DNA of 64,000 bases from an uncultured Corynebacterium sp. (GCF_946221155.1 NZ_CAMIAN010000002.1:20887-84886), one strand, 5' to 3'. Counted from the stretch's first letter, positions 5,740 through 41,492 are shown. Made by a program: numbers and translations. Notes: a model not told the origin generated them from the sequence alone.

Positions 5740-6006
5740 ATGGATTGGCGCCACAAAGCCGTTTGCCGTGAAGAAGACCCCGAACTGTTCTTCCCCGTAG
5801 GAAACTCCGGCCCCGCCCTGGCCCAGATCGCCAAGGCCAAGCTGGTCTGCAACCGCTGCCCCGTCGCTTCCCAGTGCCTCAACTGGGCCATTGAGTCCGG
5901 CCAGGATGCCGGCGTGTGGGGCGGCATGGCCGAGGATGAGCGCCGCGCGCTGAAGCGCCGCACCAACCGCGGCCGCACCCGCACCCGCAAGCGCATCACC
6001 GTTTAA
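5740..6006 (+). CDS. whiB1: WhiB1-type [4Fe-4S] transcription factor (WhcE in Corynebacterium)
   Basis: MDWRHKAVCREEDPELFFPVGNSGPALAQIAKAKLVCNRCPV...GVWGG is near-identical to Mtb WhiB1 (4 Cys, GVWGG turn). SD AGAAGGGAAA precedes the ATG. Confidence 0.95.
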   Translation: MDWRHKAVCREEDPELFFPVGNSGPALAQIAKAKLVCNRCPVASQCLNWAIESGQDAGVWGGMAEDERRALKRRTNRGRTRTRKRITV

Positions 6007-32936: not shown

Positions 32937-33517
32937 TGGATATTATCGCCCCACTTGTTGCCCAGGATCCGGCCAGCCCGCGCCTGACCACCTACACCCC
33001 GGCCGGCCGCATGGAGCTGTCCGCCCAGACCCTGCATAACTGGCAGTCGAAGGCCGCCCACCTGCTGGATTCGCTTGCCCCAGCCTCGGTAGGGATCGCC
33101 TGCGCCCCGGGTTGGCAGCCGCTCATGATTGTTCTGGGTTGCTGGCGGACTGGTGTTTCTATTGTGGACGCCGACTCTTGCGACGTGCTTTTTACCGACG
33201 ATTTAAACCTGGCGGCGGCCCACTCGGGTGAGGTTTTCGTACTCTCCGACGATCCTTTTGGCCGCGGCGTGGAGGAGTCCGGCGGTGAGTTGCCCTTCGG
33301 AGTGAACGACTTCTCCCCCGAGCTGCGCGTGCAGCCGGATGCTTATCCCGGCCCGGCGGCCGCCCCCGCCCCAGAAGGTCCGCGGGTGTTGGTTCCCGCG
33401 TGGACCGATACCCAGTCGATGCTGGATACGCTAAAGCCGCTGCGCGACGGCGGGTCGGTGGTGATGGCCACCGAGCCCACTGCCGAGATCGCAGCGGCGG
33501 AGAACGCGACTATTTAA
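32936..33517 (+). CDS. TIGR03089-like conserved protein (Rv3268 position)
   Basis: ATG overlaps the LCP TAA by 1 nt (taATGg). The 193-aa ORF is conserved downstream of the LCP gene in Mtb. Confidence 0.5.
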   Translation: MDIIAPLVAQDPASPRLTTYTPAGRMELSAQTLHNWQSKAAHLLDSLAPASVGIACAPGWQPLMIVLGCWRTGVSIVDADSCDVLFTDDLNLAAAHSGEVFVLSDDPFGRGVEESGGELPFGVNDFSPELRVQPDAYPGPAAAPAPEGPRVLVPAWTDTQSMLDTLKPLRDGGSVVMATEPTAEIAAAENATI

Positions 33518-34244
33518 CGTCCTTGCGTTGGTGGACGAGGAAGGCCCAGACCACAAGCACCAGAGTCCAAGCGCAGACAATTGCCACGCTGACCGGGGTG
33601 TCGTGCCCGCCGACGGAGACGTTGCCGCCCAGGATCATCCAAATGTTGTTGAACGGCAGGTAGGGCGCGATGTTGTCGGCAATCCATTGGCTGAGCTGTT
33701 GAGAGATCAGCTCCACCGCAGTCGCCCACACCAGCGGCAGCGCTACGGCGCCGGCCGGGGAGGGAATCAACACGCCGATCGCCGAGGCCATCAGGCTGAC
33801 CAGCCCGGCAAATAGGATCGTATAGCCCAGCAGCGGCAGCTGGTCTGTGTTCAGCTCCTGCGGCAAGGTCGCCACCATCGCCAGCGATACTCCTACCGCA
33901 ACAGCCATGGTCACCATCGCCAGGGCTGCGTTGACAAACATCTGCGCGAACAGCTGCTGCCAGCGGGCGGGGATCACCAAGAAGGACTGCGCATGCAGGT
34001 TGTGCCCGCGCGTACCGCTGACTCGCACGGCCGATAGCGACAGGATCAGCAAGTAAGCCGGCATAAGCCCCACGCCCAGCTCTGTCAGGCCGATCTCGGG
34101 CTCGTTCGCTCCGTATTCCGACTTGTAGTAGCTCAGAGTCAGTGCATTAGCACCGATGTAGAACAGCAGGACGAAACCCAGCATAATCCAGGTTCCCCAC
34201 ATGACGCGCGAGCGCGTCCATTCGCTGCGGATGATTCCTAGCAT
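33510..34244 (-). CDS. ABC-2 type transporter permease (copy 1)
   Basis: 244 aa with six predicted TM helices; coupled by a 1-nt overlap to the upstream ATPase. Confidence 0.8.
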   Translation of the reverse strand: MLGIIRSEWTRSRVMWGTWIMLGFVLLFYIGANALTLSYYKSEYGANEPEIGLTELGVGLMPAYLLILSLSAVRVSGTRGHNLHAQSFLVIPARWQQLFAQMFVNAALAMVTMAVAVGVSLAMVATLPQELNTDQLPLLGYTILFAGLVSLMASAIGVLIPSPAGAVALPLVWATAVELISQQLSQWIADNIAPYLPFNNIWMILGGNVSVGGHDTPVSVAIVCAWTLVLVVWAFLVHQRKDVK

Positions 34245-35176
34245 TACTGGCCCCTCCTGTCCTGAGTCTTGTACTCCACTGCCTGCCCGGTCGCGTCCAG
34301 GAACTTCTGTTCCAGGCCCGCGCGCTGCGGGGTCATCTCTAGCACCACAGCTCCGGTGTCGCGCGCCAGTTCGCCGAGGCGCTTGTCCAGGTCGGGGGCT
34401 TCGGAGGCGAACTCCAGGGAGCCGTCGGTTTGCCGTGTGAGGTTGACGCCATCCAAGCGTGAGGTGGCGTCCACAAAAGAATCGGGATCGGCCACGCGCA
34501 TCCGGATGGTGGGCTGGGCGCCCGTGCGCAGGAACTCATCCATGGTGTATTCGCCGATGAGGGAGCCCTTGCCAATGACGACAAGGCGGTCGGCGGTGAG
34601 TTCCATCTCGTGCAGCAGGTGGGAGCTGACCAGCACGGCGCGACCCTCGGCGGCACTGCGGCGGATCAGTCCGCGCATCCAGTGCACGCCTTCGGGGTCG
34701 AGGCCATTGACGGGCTCATCGAGGATGAGGTGCTGCGGGTCGCCCAGCAGAGCCACGGCCAGGCCCAGGCGCTGCTTCATGCCGAGGGAGAACTTCTTGA
34801 TCTTGCGCTTCTGCACCCCGGCTAGGCCCACCAGTTCCAGGCACTCGTCGGCGCGGGACTGCGAGATCCCGGCCGCCTGCGCGATGGAGCGAATGTGCGC
34901 CCGGGCGGAGTGACCGGGCATGTACCAGGTCGGTTCCAGCAGCGCGCCGGCGATGTGAGGACGCTGCGCGCGGTAGGAACTCAAAGGCTTGCCATTAAAG
35001 GTGACTTCGCCTTTACCTATCGTGTCGAGCCCCAGGATGCAGCGCATCGTGGAGGACTTACCGGAACCGTTCGGCCCCAGAAAGCCAGTGACCTGGCCAT
35101 CTGGAACCGAAAAAGTGAGCCCATGGAGAACCTCCGTGGACCCATACTTTTTCGTTAATTCTTTGACTGCGATCAT
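34244..35176 (-). CDS. ABC transporter ATP-binding protein (copy 1)
   Basis: Walker A GPNGSGKSST, signature LSLGMKQRL and Walker B LILDEP. Confidence 0.9.
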   Translation of the reverse strand: MIAVKELTKKYGSTEVLHGLTFSVPDGQVTGFLGPNGSGKSSTMRCILGLDTIGKGEVTFNGKPLSSYRAQRPHIAGALLEPTWYMPGHSARAHIRSIAQAAGISQSRADECLELVGLAGVQKRKIKKFSLGMKQRLGLAVALLGDPQHLILDEPVNGLDPEGVHWMRGLIRRSAAEGRAVLVSSHLLHEMELTADRLVVIGKGSLIGEYTMDEFLRTGAQPTIRMRVADPDSFVDATSRLDGVNLTRQTDGSLEFASEAPDLDKRLGELARDTGAVVLEMTPQRAGLEQKFLDATGQAVEYKTQDRRGQ

Positions 35177-35195
35177 GTCGTCAGGCTATCAAAAT

Positions 35196-35936
35196 CTATT
35201 TCACGTCTCTGGTCTTGTTGCTGTACAGCCCCAGGGCCAGCAGGACGACCATCCAGGCGATCATCACCGCGAAGCCGAAGCCGGGGCTGACCATGTCGGT
35301 GTGGTCCTGGGCGTAGATCCAGGTTTGCATGTCCTGCACGCGGCTGCCCGGGGACAGGTGATACAGCGTCTTCAGGAAGGAGATCTTGTCGCCCGCGGCG
35401 TACAGCAGCCCCTCGACCACCAGCATCCACACCAGGGGCAGCGCGATGGCACCCACTCGATTGCGCAGCAGCGCGGCGATGCCGACGGCCATCACGGCGA
35501 AAGCCGGGGCGCCCACCGCGTATCCCCACACGAGCAGCTGATCTTCGCCGGTGAAGTGCCCGGCCGGGAATACATTGAACACCGCCCAGCTGAGCGCCAG
35601 GCCGAGGATGTAGTTCAGCTCCACAAACACCGCCGCCACCAGCGCGCGGGCCAGCAGCCAGGAACTCCGGTGATTCTGAGTGAGGAACGCGTGGGCCGTC
35701 ATGCGGTTACTGATATCGCCGCCGGTCGTCGAGGCACCGAAGATAATGGCGATCATCAGGAAGATCATCCCGCCGAAAAGCAGGTCGGGCCAGCCGCCGT
35801 CCAATCGCGGGGAGTCATTGAAAAGCATGTACAGCGTCGTCGGGCCGTAGAGCGAGCCCGTGAACAGGATCAGGTATACCCAGGTGCTTCGAAGGCTGAG
35901 TAGCTTCGTAACTTCGGAGGAAATTGCTTTGAGCAT
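35196..35936 (-). CDS. ABC-2 type transporter permease (copy 2)
   Basis: 246 aa with six TM helices; paralogous to copy 1. Confidence 0.8.
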   Translation of the reverse strand: MLKAISSEVTKLLSLRSTWVYLILFTGSLYGPTTLYMLFNDSPRLDGGWPDLLFGGMIFLMIAIIFGASTTGGDISNRMTAHAFLTQNHRSSWLLARALVAAVFVELNYILGLALSWAVFNVFPAGHFTGEDQLLVWGYAVGAPAFAVMAVGIAALLRNRVGAIALPLVWMLVVEGLLYAAGDKISFLKTLYHLSPGSRVQDMQTWIYAQDHTDMVSPGFGFAVMIAWMVVLLALGLYSNKTRDVK

Positions 35937-35972
35937 GGTTTGTCTCTTTTCTATGCGGAGTCGGTGGCGGGG

Positions 35973-36908
35973 CTAGTTGCTGCGGTATTCCTGCTGGCCT
36001 GCGGTCGCGGCGAGGAAGCGCTGCTCCAGGTTGTCTGCGGTGGTTGCGAGCTTGGTCACCGCGAACTTCTCCTCCAGCGCCGTTGCCGCGATCACCGCGC
36101 GTACTTCGTGTTCTGGAACGTTGTTGACGCCCACACGCAGCGTCCGCTCCCGGTCCAGATCAACCTGGAAGCCGCGACTGCGAAGGCTGTCTGCCAACAG
36201 GACCGCTTCCTTGCACTCGACCTCCACGTGGGCGCCGCCAGCGAGGAACTCCTCCAGGGTTTGCTCACCGATGAGCTTGCCCTGGCCGATTAGCACCAGG
36301 CGGTCCGCGGTTTGCTGCATCTCGCTGAGCAAGTGGGAGCTAACCAGCAGGCCACGGCCGTCGTCGGCGAGTTGGCGGATGATGCGGCGCATCCAGGACA
36401 CGCCCTCGGGGTCGAGGCCGTTGACCGGCTCGTCGAGAATCAGGTGCTGAGGGTTGCCAAGGAGTGCAGCGGCCAGGCCGAGGCGTTGCTTCATACCCAG
36501 GGAGTAGCCACCGACCTTCTTCTTTCCCGCGCTCGTGAGGCCCACCATGTCGAGGCATTCGTCGACGCGCTTGTCGGAAATCCCGGCGCCCTTTGCGATG
36601 ACGCGCAGGTGGTTGCGGCCGCTGCGGGCAGGGGTGAACCAGGTGGCGTCCAGGACCGCGCCGGCGATGCTGGACTTGTTATCCAGACCTGCGAAAGCCC
36701 CGGCGTACCCCTTGCCGCTGAAGGTCACCTTGCCGGCGCTCGGCTTGTCGAGGCCGAGCATGCAACGCATGGTGGTGGACTTGCCCGCACCGTTGGGCCC
36801 GAGGAAGCCAGTCACCTGCCCGTCCGGGACGGTGAATGAAAGGTCGTTGACTACAGTTTTCTTGCCGTACCTCTTGGTGAGGTTTTCCACGATGATCATG
36901 GTTCCCAT
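35973..36908 (-). CDS. ABC transporter ATP-binding protein (copy 2)
   Basis: Walker A GPNGAGKSTT, signature YSLGMKQRL and Walker B LILDEP; about 60% identical in pattern to copy 1. Confidence 0.9.
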   Translation of the reverse strand: MGTMIIVENLTKRYGKKTVVNDLSFTVPDGQVTGFLGPNGAGKSTTMRCMLGLDKPSAGKVTFSGKGYAGAFAGLDNKSSIAGAVLDATWFTPARSGRNHLRVIAKGAGISDKRVDECLDMVGLTSAGKKKVGGYSLGMKQRLGLAAALLGNPQHLILDEPVNGLDPEGVSWMRRIIRQLADDGRGLLVSSHLLSEMQQTADRLVLIGQGKLIGEQTLEEFLAGGAHVEVECKEAVLLADSLRSRGFQVDLDRERTLRVGVNNVPEHEVRAVIAATALEEKFAVTKLATTADNLEQRFLAATAGQQEYRSN

Positions 36909-36967
36909 GCTGCCGCCCGGGGTGGTGCTCCCACATCGGACGAGGGGTTGATCTTGCGTGTCCTACC

Positions 36968-38128
36968 TCAGTATGAGGGCCCGCCCTCCCGCTCTTCAAT
37001 CGCCTGGTGATACTCGGCCAGCGCCTTAGTCTTTCGGACGTTGCGCTGGGCAAAGGTCTCACGCCCCAGCGGCCCCTCGGCCTCGGTGATCACGCTATGC
37101 CCGTCACCGTGGGAGGTCCACACCTCGTGCCCGTCGGGGTGCAGGGCAACGTCCCAGCTGCCGGCGGTCTTGAGGTTGTGATGCTTCGAGCAAAGCAAGT
37201 GTAAGTTTGCCGTGGACGTCGGTCCGCTGCCGTATCTCCGCACGTGGTCGTATTGGCACTTGTAGGCGGGAACCTCGCAGCCTGGGAAGCGACAGTGCAG
37301 GTCGCGCCCTGCTACGGCTGCCTTGATGCTCTCCGTCGGCGTGTACCCCTTGCACTCCGCGTAGCCCGGCGCGGACAGGTGCGTCACCCGCTGCAGCCAG
37401 GTCTTGGAGGCGGAGCGGTTCAGCCAGTGGTCCTCCCCCAGCACCGCACCGTCGTTTGCCGGGTCGTGGTACAGGTTCAGCGTCACCGAGACCTCGGCCT
37501 TGTCGGTAATTAACCGCAGCATTGCCTCCGGCTGCGAGCACTCGTACTTCTTGGCGGTAGCACGCACGATCTTGTCGATCTCAATGCCTTCCATCCGCGG
37601 AACCCGCAGCGTGAAAGTGGTGTACTCCGGGTCGCGGAAATCCACGTTAAAGCTCGGCTCAGTCGCGGTGGCCTCATCCTTAGGTATGACGTTCCGGTCG
37701 ACCTCCCGCAGAATCTGCGAAATGCGATTGTGGATAGTCCTCGGTGAAAACACGTGCTGGTCGGCACGTGAGGGCGTCAATACATCAAGAACCTTGCCCT
37801 CAACCCTCTCCCGATCGTCTGGCGATACAGGCAGCAAGTCCTGCGCCACCCGTAGCACGTGGCGGGCAGTGTAACACCCCTGATTGAACAGCTCGACGAG
37901 GCGCGGAAAGTCGCGTAATACGAAAGCGGCCTCGGCCCAGGCCTCCGCAACCCCGGCAGAAACCCCCAGGCGCACGGCGAGACGGGTACAAAAATCAGGC
38001 ACCAGGTCCTCCCCGTCCGGAGCACATGCCATTATCAGTTGAAATTGTTGTTGATTGAGCTGCCGTGCCGCGACGGTCAGCGGATCCTGCGAACTGGCTA
38101 TTCGAAACGATGGTGGTGAGGCGGTCAT
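36968..38128 (-). mobile_element. DUF222 + HNH endonuclease domain protein (REP13E12-like selfish element family)
   Basis: C-terminal HNH motif (CRFPGCEVPAYKCQYDHVRRYGSGPTSTANLHLLCSKHHNLK) and an N-terminal DUF222-like region. Start at the internal ATG, which has an AGGGGA SD. Confidence 0.75.
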
Positions 38129-38148
38129 GGAATTTCCCCTAATCCAGC

Positions 38149-38171
38149 GGCGAGGTTGTGGTGACCTCGCC
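38149..38171 (-). promoter_or_regulatory. perfect 8-bp inverted repeat GGCGAGGT-N7-ACCTCGCC immediately upstream of the HNH gene SD
   Basis: Read directly. A TTGACT...TATTCT promoter-like pair lies just upstream on the coding strand. Confidence 0.4.
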
Positions 38172-38298
38172 AAACTTCCTAACCAAAGAATAGAACACAC
38201 CATCAAACTAAGTCAATACACCCACCAAAACTTTTTTCTTTTTTATTGACTCCACCAGCTCCAACAGGGAAAACCTCCGTAAAGCTAAGGTAGAGATT

Positions 38299-38982
38299 TT
38301 AGATATTCTGTTCGAGTAAATCCTCAGAATTCACAAGGTGATGCTTGAACGCAAAAAGCACCGCGTGCACCCGATCGCGAGACTGGGTTTTAGTGAGCAC
38401 CCGGCCAACGTGCGTCTTCACGGTGGGCAGCGAAATGTAGAGCTTGTCGGCGATCTCCTGATTGCTAAGGCCCAGCGCGATGAGCTGCAGAATCTCCAGC
38501 TCGCGCGGGGTCAGCGGGTCGGGAAGATTCAGCTCCACGGGCTCGCGACGCTGTGGAGTCTGCTCCATGCGGATGCTACGCAGCAGGCGCGCGGTGGCCT
38601 TCGGACTGATCACGGCCGCAGAATCGCCGACGGTGCGGACGGCGGAGATGAGATCCTCGGGGTCGGTGTCCTTGAGCAGAAAGCCACTGGCCCCCGCCTC
38701 CACCGCGCCGAGGACGTAGTTGTCATTATCGAAGGTGGTCAACACGATCACGCGCGCGCCGGAATCACCGGAAACCACCTGGCGGGTCGCCTCGATGCCA
38801 TCCATGCGGGGCATCTGCACATCCATAAGGATGATGTCCACGGGCTGCGACTCTGCCAGCTCGCAAGCCTCCTGCCCGTCGGCGGCTTGCCACCGGACAG
38901 TAATGTCATCCTGCGAATCCAACACCAGGCCAAACCCTGCCCGTACCAGCTGCTGATCGTCGGCCAAACCTACGCTAATCAC
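38299..38982 (-). CDS. NarL/LuxR-family response regulator
   Basis: Receiver domain (ILMDVQMPRMDG) and a C-terminal LuxR HTH (LTPRELEILQLIALGLSNQEIADKLYIS). Confidence 0.9.
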   Translation of the reverse strand: MISVGLADDQQLVRAGFGLVLDSQDDITVRWQAADGQEACELAESQPVDIILMDVQMPRMDGIEATRQVVSGDSGARVIVLTTFDNDNYVLGAVEAGASGFLLKDTDPEDLISAVRTVGDSAAVISPKATARLLRSIRMEQTPQRREPVELNLPDPLTPRELEILQLIALGLSNQEIADKLYISLPTVKTHVGRVLTKTQSRDRVHAVLFAFKHHLVNSEDLLEQNI

Positions 38983-40200
38983 CTAATCCTCCTTCGCATA
39001 AGGCACCGTCGCGGTCACGTTCCACCCACCGGGGTACAACGCCGAGGCTCCCCACTTGGCCTCGCCGCCGTGGATCGCCACGCGCTGGCGGATGCCAGTC
39101 AAACCGCGGCCGGACCCCTCGATCTGCTCTTCACCCGGCGCGTTATCTACGCTAATGGTCACCTGGGCGGGCTCCCACTCCAGCCGCACCTGGGCAGACA
39201 CAGAGCCCGCGTGCTTCAGCACGTTGGTCAGGGATTCCTGCACGATACGGTACACACTTAAGTCGCGGACCTCGTCCAGCTGGTGCGGTTCGCCGGTAAC
39301 GTGCAGCTTCACCTGCACCCCGTTGCGCTTGGCATCTGCCACAAGCTCGGGAACGCCAGCCACCCCAGGGGTGACGGTGGTGGATCGCGGCGAGGGGGCG
39401 TCATCGTGAAGAACAGAGAGCAGCTCCCGCATCTGGGTCAGAGCCGAGCGACCGCGCGCGGCGATCGTGTCGAGGGCCTCGATGGCCTTGTCCGGATCCT
39501 TGCGCCCCGCGTAGCGACCGCCATCCGCCTGCGCGATGACGACGGTGAGGGAATGCGCAACGATGTCGTGCAGCTCCCGGGCGATGCGGTTGCGCTCGCT
39601 GACGGTGGCGAGCTCGGCGCGGGCGGCCAGCGCCTCCACTGCCTGGTCGCGGCGCAGCGAATAGCGACCTGTCAGCCACATCAGGGCGATGGTCACGGCG
39701 GTGAGCAGGGCGATTACTCCCCAGAACGCCCAGAACTCAGCGGTCCGAAAATCCTCACCGCCCCATGCAAAATCACCGTCTCTTCCCTTGCGCGCGTTGT
39801 AAATGGTCCCCCACGCCATCGCGTAGAAAGAGCCAAGCAACAGTAAAGTCAGCCACAGCTTGCGGCGCAGCATCAGCTTCGCGGAGATGAAATAAGCCTC
39901 ATAGGCCACCACCAAGTAGCCAAGTGGCCACACTAGCAGCGCAGACGTCGCATAGGCATACATGCCAACTGCAGTGACTGCCACACCCCATTCAGGGCGA
40001 AAGCGTTGGAGGAGCAAGCCGATGAACCCCAAAACTAGACCTGTGCTGGCAACAACAACCTGCCAGGGGGCGATGTTCATGCCGGTGCCAAATGTGCTTC
40101 CGACACCGAGAAAGAAGAACACCATGACCACAACAGCTACAAGCACCCACCAGGAGGCATCCCGCCACCACACCGGGCGAGGAACTGCTTCATAAGACAT
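38983..40200 (-). CDS. sensor histidine kinase (HisKA_3 family, multi-TM sensor domain)
   Basis: Six or more N-terminal TM helices, the HisKA_3 H-box (RELHDIVAHSLTV) and HATPase_c. Its stop abuts the regulator's start. Confidence 0.88.
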   Translation of the reverse strand: MSYEAVPRPVWWRDASWWVLVAVVVMVFFFLGVGSTFGTGMNIAPWQVVVASTGLVLGFIGLLLQRFRPEWGVAVTAVGMYAYATSALLVWPLGYLVVAYEAYFISAKLMLRRKLWLTLLLLGSFYAMAWGTIYNARKGRDGDFAWGGEDFRTAEFWAFWGVIALLTAVTIALMWLTGRYSLRRDQAVEALAARAELATVSERNRIARELHDIVAHSLTVVIAQADGGRYAGRKDPDKAIEALDTIAARGRSALTQMRELLSVLHDDAPSPRSTTVTPGVAGVPELVADAKRNGVQVKLHVTGEPHQLDEVRDLSVYRIVQESLTNVLKHAGSVSAQVRLEWEPAQVTISVDNAPGEEQIEGSGRGLTGIRQRVAIHGGEAKWGASALYPGGWNVTATVPYAKED

Positions 40201-40215
40201 GTATGAAGAGTCTAG

Positions 40216-40998
40216 TTACAGACGCACCCTATCGCCGTAAACAAGCAGGCCATTAACGAAGCGCGTAAGGAACGGCGGCGAGAAGTGGCTGGTGGCCTCC
40301 AGCAGCTTCGTCTTCCAACCGACCGGGAAATGCACCTTCGTGGGGCTGCGGCGCGGCGCGGTCACGGCCCTTACTACCTCTGCGGCCACATCTTGTGGGG
40401 TTGTGGACGCCCCCAGCCGCCGCATTCCCGCCGTTTCCACATTGGCGATGAGCGCCGTCCGCGAGTACAGGGGCAAGACGGTGCGAACGCGAATGTTGTG
40501 CTTATCCCACTCGAAATCCAGCGCCTCGGAGATGCCGCGGACGGCGAACTTGGTGGCGGAGTAGGTGGCCATATCCGGCGTACCGTAGATGGAGGAAGCA
40601 CTGCAGACGTTGACGACCACGCCGTCGCCGGCCGCCTTGAGATGCTCGAAGGCCGCGCGGCAGCCGTAGATCACGCCCTTGACGTTGACGTCAACGAGGG
40701 CGGAATCCTGCTGGAAGCTCCCGCGGTCGATAAAGTCGCCGCCGTAGAGAACGCCCGCGTTGTTGATGAGTGCATTGATTCCCCCGGCGCGGGCCGCGAA
40801 GTCGGTAACGGTGGCGGACCACTGGTCGGGGTCGGTGACGTCGAGTGTGCCGGGGATAATGTTCGGATGTTTAGCCCAGCCGCGGACCTTGTCTCCGTCG
40901 AGGTCGTAGGCGCCGACGGTCCAGTCGGCCTCGGCGAAGGACTCAGCGATTGCGCGGCCGAAGCCTTGGGCTGCGCCGGTAACGAGTATTGATTTCAT
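40216..40998 (-). CDS. short-chain dehydrogenase/reductase (SDR) family oxidoreductase
   Basis: TGAAQGFGRAIA Rossmann motif, NNAG and the YxxxK pattern. Confidence 0.85.
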   Translation of the reverse strand: MKSILVTGAAQGFGRAIAESFAEADWTVGAYDLDGDKVRGWAKHPNIIPGTLDVTDPDQWSATVTDFAARAGGINALINNAGVLYGGDFIDRGSFQQDSALVDVNVKGVIYGCRAAFEHLKAAGDGVVVNVCSASSIYGTPDMATYSATKFAVRGISEALDFEWDKHNIRVRTVLPLYSRTALIANVETAGMRRLGASTTPQDVAAEVVRAVTAPRRSPTKVHFPVGWKTKLLEATSHFSPPFLTRFVNGLLVYGDRVRL

Positions 40999-41039
40999 AC
41001 TCCTAACTATTACAGTAGCCAGAGTACAGGAGGTAAATT

Positions 41040-41492
41040 ATGGCCTATTTAATCATCGACCAATCCGGGAACCCATTAAGTCGCCCGAATGATGGAGATG
41101 TTGTATCCAATCCAGACACAGGGCAGGTCCTTACCATCAGCTTCCTGAGGATAACCACGCCCGACGGGGACTATGAAGTTGATTTTCTTCCCGGAATTGT
41201 CGACCTCTACCAAGGAAGCAAGGATAGATCATCCTATTCCACAAATATTCAAGAGATAAGCGTCGAGAAAGGAACTCGACTTCACAAAATTGGCAGTATT
41301 GACCATATAGATGATGTAACCCTGACGCATTTAGGGGATAAATACCGAGTTCAGGCCGCGAAACTAGACGACACGAAACCAGATAGTTTAATCCTCTGCG
41401 AAGATGGTTTTATAAGAACTTTGCAAGATAGTTTTTCTGCTACCGACAGGCCTCAAGGAGTTTTCCCCGTTCTCCACAAAGTCGATGAGTAG
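41040..41492 (+). CDS. orphan hypothetical protein in a low-GC islet
   Basis: Perfect AGGAGG SD, 150 aa, no recognisable motif. GC is markedly lower (about 45%) than the neighbouring purE and SDR genes, and it is the only plus-strand gene among minus-strand neighbours. Confidence 0.6.
   Translation: MAYLIIDQSGNPLSRPNDGDVVSNPDTGQVLTISFLRITTPDGDYEVDFLPGIVDLYQGSKDRSSYSTNIQEISVEKGTRLHKIGSIDHIDDVTLTHLGDKYRVQAAKLDDTKPDSLILCEDGFIRTLQDSFSATDRPQGVFPVLHKVDE

Follow-up and report, generated by a model that had tools for sequence, protein, structure and literature searches.

Between the genes for a TIGR03089 protein (Rv3268-like) and purE, a 64,000-nt stretch of DNA from an uncultured Corynebacterium sp. 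(GCF_946221155.1, NZ_CAMIAN010000002.1:20887-84886; the whole stretch is called the window here) carries about 8 kb that encode a short-chain dehydrogenase/reductase (SDR), a histidine kinase, a response regulator, a DUF222-HNH protein, and two pairs of an ABC ATPase and an ABC-2-type permease. This locus raises the question of whether the block is an accessory island, as a first-pass annotation had proposed, or an old part of the chromosome, and whether the kinase and regulator still control exporter genes from which the HNH gene separates them. Our best explanation for the whole, to which we assign a probability of about three in four, is that an ancestral module of a two-component system (TCS) and an ABC-2 exporter received the HNH gene between the regulator gene and an intact predicted operator, O1.

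Inheritance of the sensor-exporter block

Genes were called from a listing of open reading frames (ORFs) and from profile searches (Pfam, NCBIfam, PHROG, and PADLOC). We used the TIGR03089 protein as the anchor for a genome scan, which yielded nine genomes at the species level, each of them a member of the C. jeikeium clade. A search with the kinase returned only clade members, at identities of at least 83%, and the better-conserved ATPase was used for distant relatives: ATPase 1 orthologues were collected across the genus and the surrounding stretches were fetched.

We found that the genes for the kinase, regulator, HNH protein, ATPase 1, permease 1, ATPase 2, and permease 2 stand in the same order and place in 9/9 of the clade relatives. 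Apart from a low-GC orphan gene at the purE-proximal edge, the genes of the block have a native composition (GC, 0.61 to 0.64; GC at third codon positions [GC3], 0.75 to 0.86), and their mean pairwise synonymous divergence (dS) of 0.33 to 0.61 is like that of the flanks. We found no integrase and no bounding repeats, and there was no Rfam family or tRNA in the region from 32 to 43 kb. PADLOC gave no defense-system signal in the block other than generic ATPase matches. The first-pass annotation had described an accessory block inserted into conserved synteny, and this description did not survive the comparison with related Corynebacterium genomes: the TCS, the HNH gene, and both ABC pairs are constant in the clade relatives found, and only the SDR/orphan edge by purE varies.

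The same slot was then compared in more distant corynebacteria. In C. urealyticum, two metagenome corynebacteria, and C. glyciniphilum, the order from the purE side is a sugar ABC importer on the opposite strand, kinase, regulator, ATPase, and permease, and the TIGR03089/LCP/rmlD genes come next, directly or a few genes on. These four have one pair and no HNH gene. The importer-kinase-regulator-ATPase-permease unit of C. bovis matches theirs, on a contig that stops short of the TIGR03089/LCP flank. C. heidelbergense has both pairs in the same slot, with an unrelated 168-aa ORF at the position of the window's HNH gene. The TCS of C. ulcerans has relocated together with pair 1, from which it lies 4 kb away; in Dietzia, a three-gene importer stands between the TCS and pair 1; and in C. 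amycolatum, pair 1 is present with no TCS within 10 kb. We judged the module to be old because the slot next to TIGR03089 holds it in five of these more distant corynebacteria. The block thus appears to be an old, vertically inherited Corynebacterium sensor-plus-exporter set rather than a recent island, and the jeikeium clade appears to have lost the four-gene sugar ABC importer from the slot rather than to have gained the block.

The alternative is that the whole 8-kb block was acquired horizontally, as an accessory detoxification island between the Rv3268-like gene and purE. This would account for the variation of the purE-proximal edge among close relatives and for the foreign composition of the orphan, and we counted in its favor the content of the slot in M. 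tuberculosis (Rv3269-Rv3274c), which we take to be different. However, it fits poorly with an order that is identical throughout the clade, with the occupation of the same slot in five more distant corynebacteria, and with the native composition and flank-equal dS of every gene but the orphan, and a tRNA, an integrase, and flanking repeats are all missing. We consider it very improbable.

The two ATPase/permease pairs were rightly taken for paralogues in the first-pass annotation, the ATPases being 52% and the permeases 27% identical. Both pairs have one-to-one orthologues in C. heidelbergense (62% identity for ATPase 2 and 39% for permease 2). Because of these orthologues, we place the duplication before the jeikeium clade; it is old rather than recent.

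Predicted control of the exporter genes

By phylogenetic footprinting, we found a palindrome, TCATAC(C/T)NN(G/A)G(T/G)ATGA, upstream of the ATPase 1 gene (atp1) in seven TCS-linked species outside the clade. The window was scanned with the motif TCATAC-N4-G(T/G)ATGA as a strict consensus, allowing up to 2 mismatches. There were two matches in the 64 kb, versus 0.02 expected: O1, which is kept in 9/9 clade loci, and a palindrome inside the HNH gene (Table 1). O1 was the best match or close to it over about 20 kb, within the top 0.4 to 0.8% of 100-nt windows, in seven loci, namely, our window, C. urealyticum, C. ulcerans, L013, L014, C. heidelbergense, and C. glyciniphilum. The C. glyciniphilum locus was fetched after the motif had been defined, and it has a perfect site, GTCATACTGCGGTATGAC, at the expected place. 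The best motif match in C. amycolatum, where the pair has no TCS nearby, has 6 mismatches.

In seven species, the palindrome recurs before the kinase gene, in a fixed layout of operator, 23 nt (22 nt in one species), TAnnnT, 8 to 11 nt, and start codon. At atp1, we anchored the comparison on the conserved ATGATCA, which is most likely the start of ATPase 1 (position 36899), and found an nAnnnT hexamer at -13 to -8 of this ATG in 11/12 loci. A weaker operator-like site, O2, precedes the -10 hexamer by exactly 23 nt, as at the kinase promoters. O1 is centered at -69.5, about -80, or -90.5, moving in steps of one helical turn across loci. This layout looks like that of an activator-dependent promoter without a -35 element, and the atp1 transcript is probably leaderless. 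A sigma-70 -35/-10 assignment around the RATCA box of O2, tried by eye, was dropped for this start-codon-anchored model.

The predicted promoter in the window (36976 to 36900) is whole. O1 reads TCA TAC TGA GGTAGGA, its left half coding for the final two codons and the stop of the HNH gene. In other species, the gap from the regulator stop to O1 is only 5 to 25 nt. The HNH gene appears to have landed in this gap and to have left the predicted control site of the exporter intact. The first-pass annotation had seen in the TCS and the exporters the layout of a peptide- or drug-sensing detoxification module, and the operator-like palindrome common to both predicted promoters argues for a functional link between them. 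The TCS most likely still activates the exporters.

In the mechanism that we propose, the phosphorylated regulator would bind the 6-4-6 palindrome TCATAC-N4-G(T/G)ATGA and activate the -35-less, probably leaderless promoter directly upstream of atp1. ATPase 1, permease 1, ATPase 2, and permease 2 would be transcribed from it as one unit. In most species, the regulator would also activate its own operon, from the operator 23 nt from the -10. The products of the four exporter genes would most likely assemble into two half-transporter complexes, each a homodimer, and clear the envelope of a membrane-active compound. The DUF222-HNH gene, with a promoter of its own, would have inserted into the short gap between the regulator stop and O1, and the exporter promoter would have survived. 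The clade would have lost the neighboring sugar importer and, with it, the kinase-proximal operator. Gene content, orthology, synteny, the conservation and spacing of the motif, and the selection statistics are observed; we infer regulator binding, activation rather than repression, leaderless transcription, cotranscription, and the stoichiometry and substrate of the transporters from sequence.

Several observations weigh against this mechanism. The motif is degenerate in its right half-site, and the O2 copy of the window departs from it by 3 mismatches. O1 of C. bovis has 3 mismatches (top 10.5%), and Dietzia has no recognizable O1. The consensus was derived partly from sites on which it is tested (L010 and L013). 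The jeikeium clade has no kinase-proximal operator, and its circuit differs in this from that of its relatives. We found no terminator-like site between the HNH gene and atp1, so read-through from the HNH promoter into atp1 is possible. Finally, the substrate class of the exporter is suggested by analogy only. The best NCBIfam matches of the ATPases (LanF-like, GldA, DrrA, and PmtC/A) all fall far below the cutoffs.

Since the SDR gene ends 15 nt before the kinase ATG and the clade has no kinase-proximal operator, the TCS is probably cotranscribed with the SDR gene in the window and its autoregulation lost. Where it is present (L010, L013, L014, L015, L023, and L024), the kinase-proximal operator occupies the short stretch (only about 50 to 65 bp) between the kinase gene and the divergent ATPase gene of the sugar importer, and the TCS may also influence this importer. 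The relaxed operator pattern also matches the regulator coding sequence (38819 to 38834), at the receiver motif IILMDV, and relatives have equivalents. We regard this match as a false positive because the protein motif is conserved, and it calls for caution in regulon scans.

Table 1. Genes and predicted control sites of the block, by position in the window
Feature	Position	Strand	Description
Permease 2 (ABC-2 type)	33510..34244	-	244 aa, about 5 to 6 transmembrane segments; weak Pfam ABC2_membrane_2 match, hydropathy, 39% identical C. heidelbergense orthologue
ABC ATPase 2	34244..35176	-	310 aa; Pfam ABC_tran, 1.5e-26; Walker A, signature, and Walker B intact
Permease 1 (ABC-2 type)	35196..35936	-	246 aa; orthologues of 37 to 44% identity in C. 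urealyticum, C. ulcerans, C. amycolatum, and C. heidelbergense
ABC ATPase 1 (atp1)	35973..36899 (ORF to 36908)	-	308 aa from conserved ATGATCA; Pfam ABC_tran
Predicted -10 hexamer CAGCAT	36907..36912	-	7 nt upstream of atp1 ATG
Weak operator-like site O2, TCAACCCCTCGTCCGA	36936..36951	-	Exactly 23 nt upstream of -10; RATCA-N11-GATGT box conserved at a fixed position
Strong operator-like palindrome O1, TCATACTGAGGTAGGA	36961..36976	-	Centered at -69.5; overlaps last two HNH codons and stop
Stand-alone DUF222-HNH gene	36968..38128 (ORF to 38206)	-	386 aa; Pfam DUF222, PHROG HNH, conserved catalytic/zinc residues
HNH-internal operator-like palindrome, TCATACCTAAGGATGA	37674..37689	-	0 mismatches to TCATMC-N4-GKATGA
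HNH promoter-like TTGACT-N18-TATTCT	38187..38216	-	Upstream of HNH gene; counted as part of HNH cassette
NarL/LuxR-family response regulator	38299..38982	-	227 aa; Pfam Response_reg and GerE; orthologues of 63 to 65% identity in other corynebacteria
HisKA_3/HATPase_c histidine kinase	38983..40200	-	405 aa; Pfam
SDR oxidoreductase	40216..40998	-	NCBIfam PRK08267, 276 bits versus cutoff of 261; 57% identical orthologue in same slot of L013
Low-GC orphan	41040..41492	+	150 aa, predicted all-beta; only compositionally foreign gene

The genes, domains, order, and coordinates of the first-pass annotation were reproduced by our ORF listing and profile searches. Transcription on the minus strand runs from the SDR gene through the kinase, regulator, DUF222-HNH, ATPase 1, permease 1, and ATPase 2 genes to permease 2. 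The statement that all genes of the block lie on the minus strand needed correction, as the orphan is on the plus strand and divergent from the SDR gene. Beyond the TIGR03089 gene and purE, the outer flanks are LCP, rmlD, and wbbL on one side and purK, birA, and a carboxyltransferase gene on the other. The 3' end of permease 2 overlaps the end of the convergent TIGR03089 gene by 8 nt (33510 to 33517), leaving no space for a terminator between the two.

The DUF222-HNH gene and the purE-proximal edge

The HNH protein matches Pfam DUF222 (PF02720) with 26.8 bits versus a gathering threshold (GA) of 24.4 and matches PHROG HNH with an E value of 1.5e-6. Residues C279, C284, C291, D294, H295, N308, H310, C313, H316, and H317 are invariant in the family alignment. 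We placed the start at the ATG at 38128 because the 26 codons upstream are out of frame in several relatives. In the clade comparison, dN/dS was 0.084 and dS was 0.51; the gene is under purifying selection and is vertically inherited in the jeikeium clade.

Where did this gene come from? The family comprises 39 detectable proteins, nearly all from Corynebacterium. Its homologues in C. heidelbergense, C. resistens, and an uncultured Corynebacterium, at 40 to 47% identity, each stand as a lone gene amid unrelated housekeeping genes. We found no HNH-related sequence in the fetched stretches of other species, and in six other Corynebacterium species the ATPase gene follows the regulator gene directly, which bears out the earlier view of the HNH gene as a secondary insertion into an existing TCS-transporter module. 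The phage and plasmid collections held no full-length relatives, only HNH-domain matches. There were no inverted or direct repeats at the gene bounds and no second copy in the window or in the relative loci. A test for presence/absence polymorphism found the gene fixed at the same site in 9/9 clade species. Since homologues in other species sit at different sites, its mobility would be ancient rather than current. The label "selfish" given to the gene earlier is not borne out by the clade loci, which offer neither site polymorphism nor an extra copy. The HNH gene appears to be an anciently mobile lone gene that inserted a single time, in the ancestor of the jeikeium clade. Like members of the REP13E12/DUF222-HNH family of Mycobacteriales, the window protein combines a DUF222 domain at its N terminus with a C-terminal HNH domain and belongs to a group of lone genes at scattered sites. 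Unlike REP13E12, its subfamily has only 39 detectable relatives, and it is single in the window and fixed, with purifying selection, at one site across the clade.

The promoter-like sequence TTGACT...TGTTCTATTCTTT upstream of the HNH gene recurs upstream of the C. resistens homologue, in another genomic context. The recurrence suggests a cassette made of promoter and ORF.

The junction between the regulator gene and atp1 has taken different insertions by lineage: DUF5692 genes in L011 (5974 to 9726), a 168-aa membrane ORF in L015 (9387 to 9893), a 3-gene importer in the Dietzia locus L025 (2515 to 5375), and the HNH gene in the window. At the Corynebacterium junctions, the operator is kept beside the ATPase gene; O1 is not recognizable at that of Dietzia.

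In most other members of the HNH family, the C terminus consists of an acidic stretch and then PPF or PPY, which calls to mind the C-terminal tip of SSB. In the window copy, it is GGPSY, overlapping O1. The consensus of the LexA SOS box is TcGAAmAnnTGTtCGA. A sequence upstream of the C. heidelbergense homologue, TCGAACAGGTGTTCGG (L017, about 5840 to 5860), resembles a corynebacterial LexA SOS box, and the window's HNH promoter matches this LexA-like box only in part. The resemblance hints that the HNH family may be inducible by DNA damage.

The palindrome inside the HNH gene matches the relaxed motif perfectly. Every clade copy of the gene has it, and the HNH homologues elsewhere do not. It is also the only 6-codon run with invariant third positions across 10 genomes (1/381 windows), while 32% of third positions are invariant in the HNH gene overall. 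We looked downstream of it for promoter elements or a leaderless start and found none. The palindrome may be a regulator site that serves as a roadblock, for looping, or for silencing of the HNH gene. This bears on a possible co-option of the HNH gene by the circuit, with the regulator binding the internal palindrome and O1 and thereby controlling HNH expression or exporter read-through. The match and its conservation peak would fit such a role, as would the strong purifying selection, the intact catalytic residues, and the lack of a terminator between the HNH gene and atp1. However, promoter-like elements are missing at the expected spacing, clade members have either A or G at position 3 of the half-site, and the case comes down to one motif occurrence and one conservation peak. 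Selection on the nuclease could also maintain a lone selfish gene. We consider co-option unlikely. Somewhat less likely still is the fuller version, in which the regulator would bind both O1 and the internal palindrome, the latter maintained by synonymous-site selection, and envelope-stress signaling would gate nuclease expression or exporter read-through. If this were true, a domesticated selfish gene would act as a regulatory spacer or partner.

The purE-proximal junction is a replacement hot spot for small genes. As noted in the first-pass annotation, the orphan is low in GC (GC, 0.453; GC3, 0.45; versus 0.61 to 0.68 in all neighbors). Its dS of 0.074, versus 0.26 to 0.6 for the neighbors, is as expected for recent spread. 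Only 7 relatives were found among 1.84 billion representatives, there was no Pfam, NCBIfam, PHROG, or PADLOC match, and the AlphaFold model has a pLDDT of 62.7, too low for a fold comparison. In L004 (18072 to 18878), the orphan is replaced by a 268-aa high-GC ORF that we read as DUF218-like by analogy, as DUF218 genes hold this position in L013 and L014. L006 (18572 to 19713) has two extra ORFs with signal-peptide-like N termini, and L007 (17396 to 17872) has a 158-aa membrane ORF at this junction. The SDR gene is replaced in L007 to L009, where about 65 nt of its 3' end is kept upstream of the kinase start. This remnant indicates that the SDR gene was deleted or replaced there and was not ancestrally absent.

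The sensor, the exporter, and their likely role

What might the module sense and export? The kinase matches HisKA_3 (PF07730, 8.4e-20) and HATPase_c (PF02518, 7.1e-6), and its translation contains the H-box ELHDIVAH. The regulator matches the receiver (PF00072, 1.2e-26) and GerE (PF00196, 4.4e-17) models and has the acceptor motif LMDVQMP. Residues 1 to 180 of the kinase show five clear hydropathy peaks, with loops of at most 22 residues, and a sixth transmembrane segment (about residues 92 to 108) was assigned by reading the sequence. The kinase is predicted to be of the multipass, intramembrane-sensing type, with about six transmembrane segments and no extracellular domain. Its cytoplasmic half is near-invariant among close species. 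The predicted outer loops and adjoining helices (residues 20 to 60 and 121 to 160) are hypervariable, with indels, and the allelic types of the sensor cut across species, the window and L006 standing against L001 to L004.

Both ATPases match PF00005 (E values of 1.5e-25 and 1.5e-26) and keep the GPNG(A/S)GKS, SLGMKQR, and LILDEP motifs. Orthologues of ATPase 1 at 60 to 71% identity occur across Corynebacterium and Dietzia. The nearest solved nucleotide-binding domains are those of ABCA1, NosF, PmtC (6xjh), and Rv1218c, and both ATPases thus seem to resemble the nucleotide-binding domains of the ABCA/ABC-2-like exporter class. The window permeases score 19.6 and 20.6 bits against PF12679 (ABC2_membrane_2), below the GA of 27.2; 8/12 orthologues match, the best with an E value of 1e-8. 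Relatives of permease 1 carry faint or weak precomputed Pfam DUF2705 matches. No PDB relatives of the permeases were found by sequence or profile, and no NCBIfam model matched them. A 1487-bp Logan contig encodes an ATPase (P0122) whose N-terminal half is like ATPase 2 and whose C-terminal half is like ATPase 1, both nearly identical. Its crossover point is in the Walker B/D-loop region, where the window paralogues are 77% identical over 261 nt, and it is either a natural recombinant of the tandem paralogues or an assembly chimera.

We compared the locus with known systems. LnrJK of B. subtilis has a HisKA_3 kinase, and YvfTU-YvfRS is grouped with LnrJK-LnrLMN. Like the window locus, LnrJK-LnrLMN combines a multipass sensor that has no extracellular domain, a NarL-type regulator, and an adjacent ABC-2 exporter. 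This exporter is induced by its TCS and removes membrane-active compounds (PMC7472640). However, LnrLMN consists of one ATPase and two permeases, whereas the window has two ATPase-permease pairs, and the host here is an actinobacterium with an outer mycomembrane; the likeness is one of architecture.

The phenol-soluble modulin exporter PmtABCD has the same gene order (ATPase, permease, ATPase, permease) and belongs to the ABC-2 class. Pmt is regulated by a GntR-type repressor, not by a TCS. PmtC is among the nearest solved nucleotide-binding domains, and PmtA and PmtC are among the NCBIfam matches, with scores of 116.8 and 94.5 bits (NF047565/NF047568) versus cutoffs of 375 and 350; we rejected membership in this family, and the gene order alone is shared. 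The Staphylococcus system matters for the question of whether the two pairs in the window form a single hetero-oligomeric transporter. Their tight linkage (junctions of 19 nt and 1 nt among the four genes) and their conservation as a unit in two lineages would suit a single complex. However, most relatives have pair 1 alone, and the tandem pairs PmtAB and PmtCD act as two cooperating transporters (PMC9974410). A single transporter therefore seems doubtful to us, and two half-transporters stay our preferred arrangement.

Other assignments were rejected as well. LanFEG (TIGR03740) scored 190.5 and 175.9 bits versus a cutoff of 309.75, and the permeases had no NCBIfam match. A BceAB-type module would have an FtsX-type permease, with ten helices and a large extracellular domain, and an OmpR-type regulator, whereas the permeases of this locus, of 244 to 246 aa, give an ABC-2 signal and its regulator is of the NarL type. 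The kinase ChrS is of the HisKA_3 class and senses through six membrane helices, ChrA is a NarL-type regulator, and HrtB is a permease of the FtsX/MacB type, not of the ABC-2 type. We rejected close kinship with ChrSA, as a TCS next to an FtsX-family gene on a related Corynebacterium contig, which we assumed to be ChrSA-like, is only 28 to 30% identical. ChrSA of C. diphtheriae and C. glutamicum activates the ABC detoxification exporter HrtBA (PMC3353115). Lantibiotic-resistance operons with a TCS and an ABC transporter are conserved in the genus (Goldbeck et al. 2021; PMC8003753). Their permeases have ten predicted helices and were compared with BceB-type transporters, their kinases have no transmembrane helices, and that study found no NisE/NisG homologues in the genus (PMC8003753). 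The window system is not the same, having ABC-2-type permeases of about 245 aa and a kinase with about six helices.

By analogy, inducible removal of a membrane-active compound by two half-transporters is the likeliest role. A serious rival, given the neighborhood of cell wall genes, is that the exporter handles an endogenous envelope component and that the TCS monitors the state of the envelope. This would agree with the conserved position by an LCP ligase, rmlD, and wbbL, with the place in relatives beside a divergent sugar importer that shares the operator region, with the wide distribution of pair 1 in the genus even where there is no TCS, and with a kinase that has no extracellular domain. 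However, detoxification modules like LnrJK-LnrLMN (PMC7472640) typically combine a TCS-ABC-2 layout with an inducible, activator-dependent promoter, as predicted here, and the hypervariable outer loops of the kinase suit an external or variable signal better. We regard a housekeeping role in the envelope as rather unlikely on balance, with odds of much the same order as those of the single transporter, and we retain detoxification as the preferred role.

If our explanation is correct, an apparent island resolves into ordinary events that can be put in order of time: the old module and its old duplication, one lone-gene insertion, one deletion, and a small hot spot. What is new here is the prediction of the operator and promoter and the exact placement of the insertion. 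An insertion can, on this prediction, land within a few bases of an operator and not break the circuit. The operator, the 23-nt spacing, and the leaderless starts make a testable regulon prediction for a TCS conserved in many corynebacteria, among them two multiresistant pathogens of the skin, C. jeikeium and C. urealyticum. Should the exporter guard against lipids, lantibiotics, or antimicrobial peptides of the skin, it would bear on the colonization and the intrinsic resistance of these bacteria.

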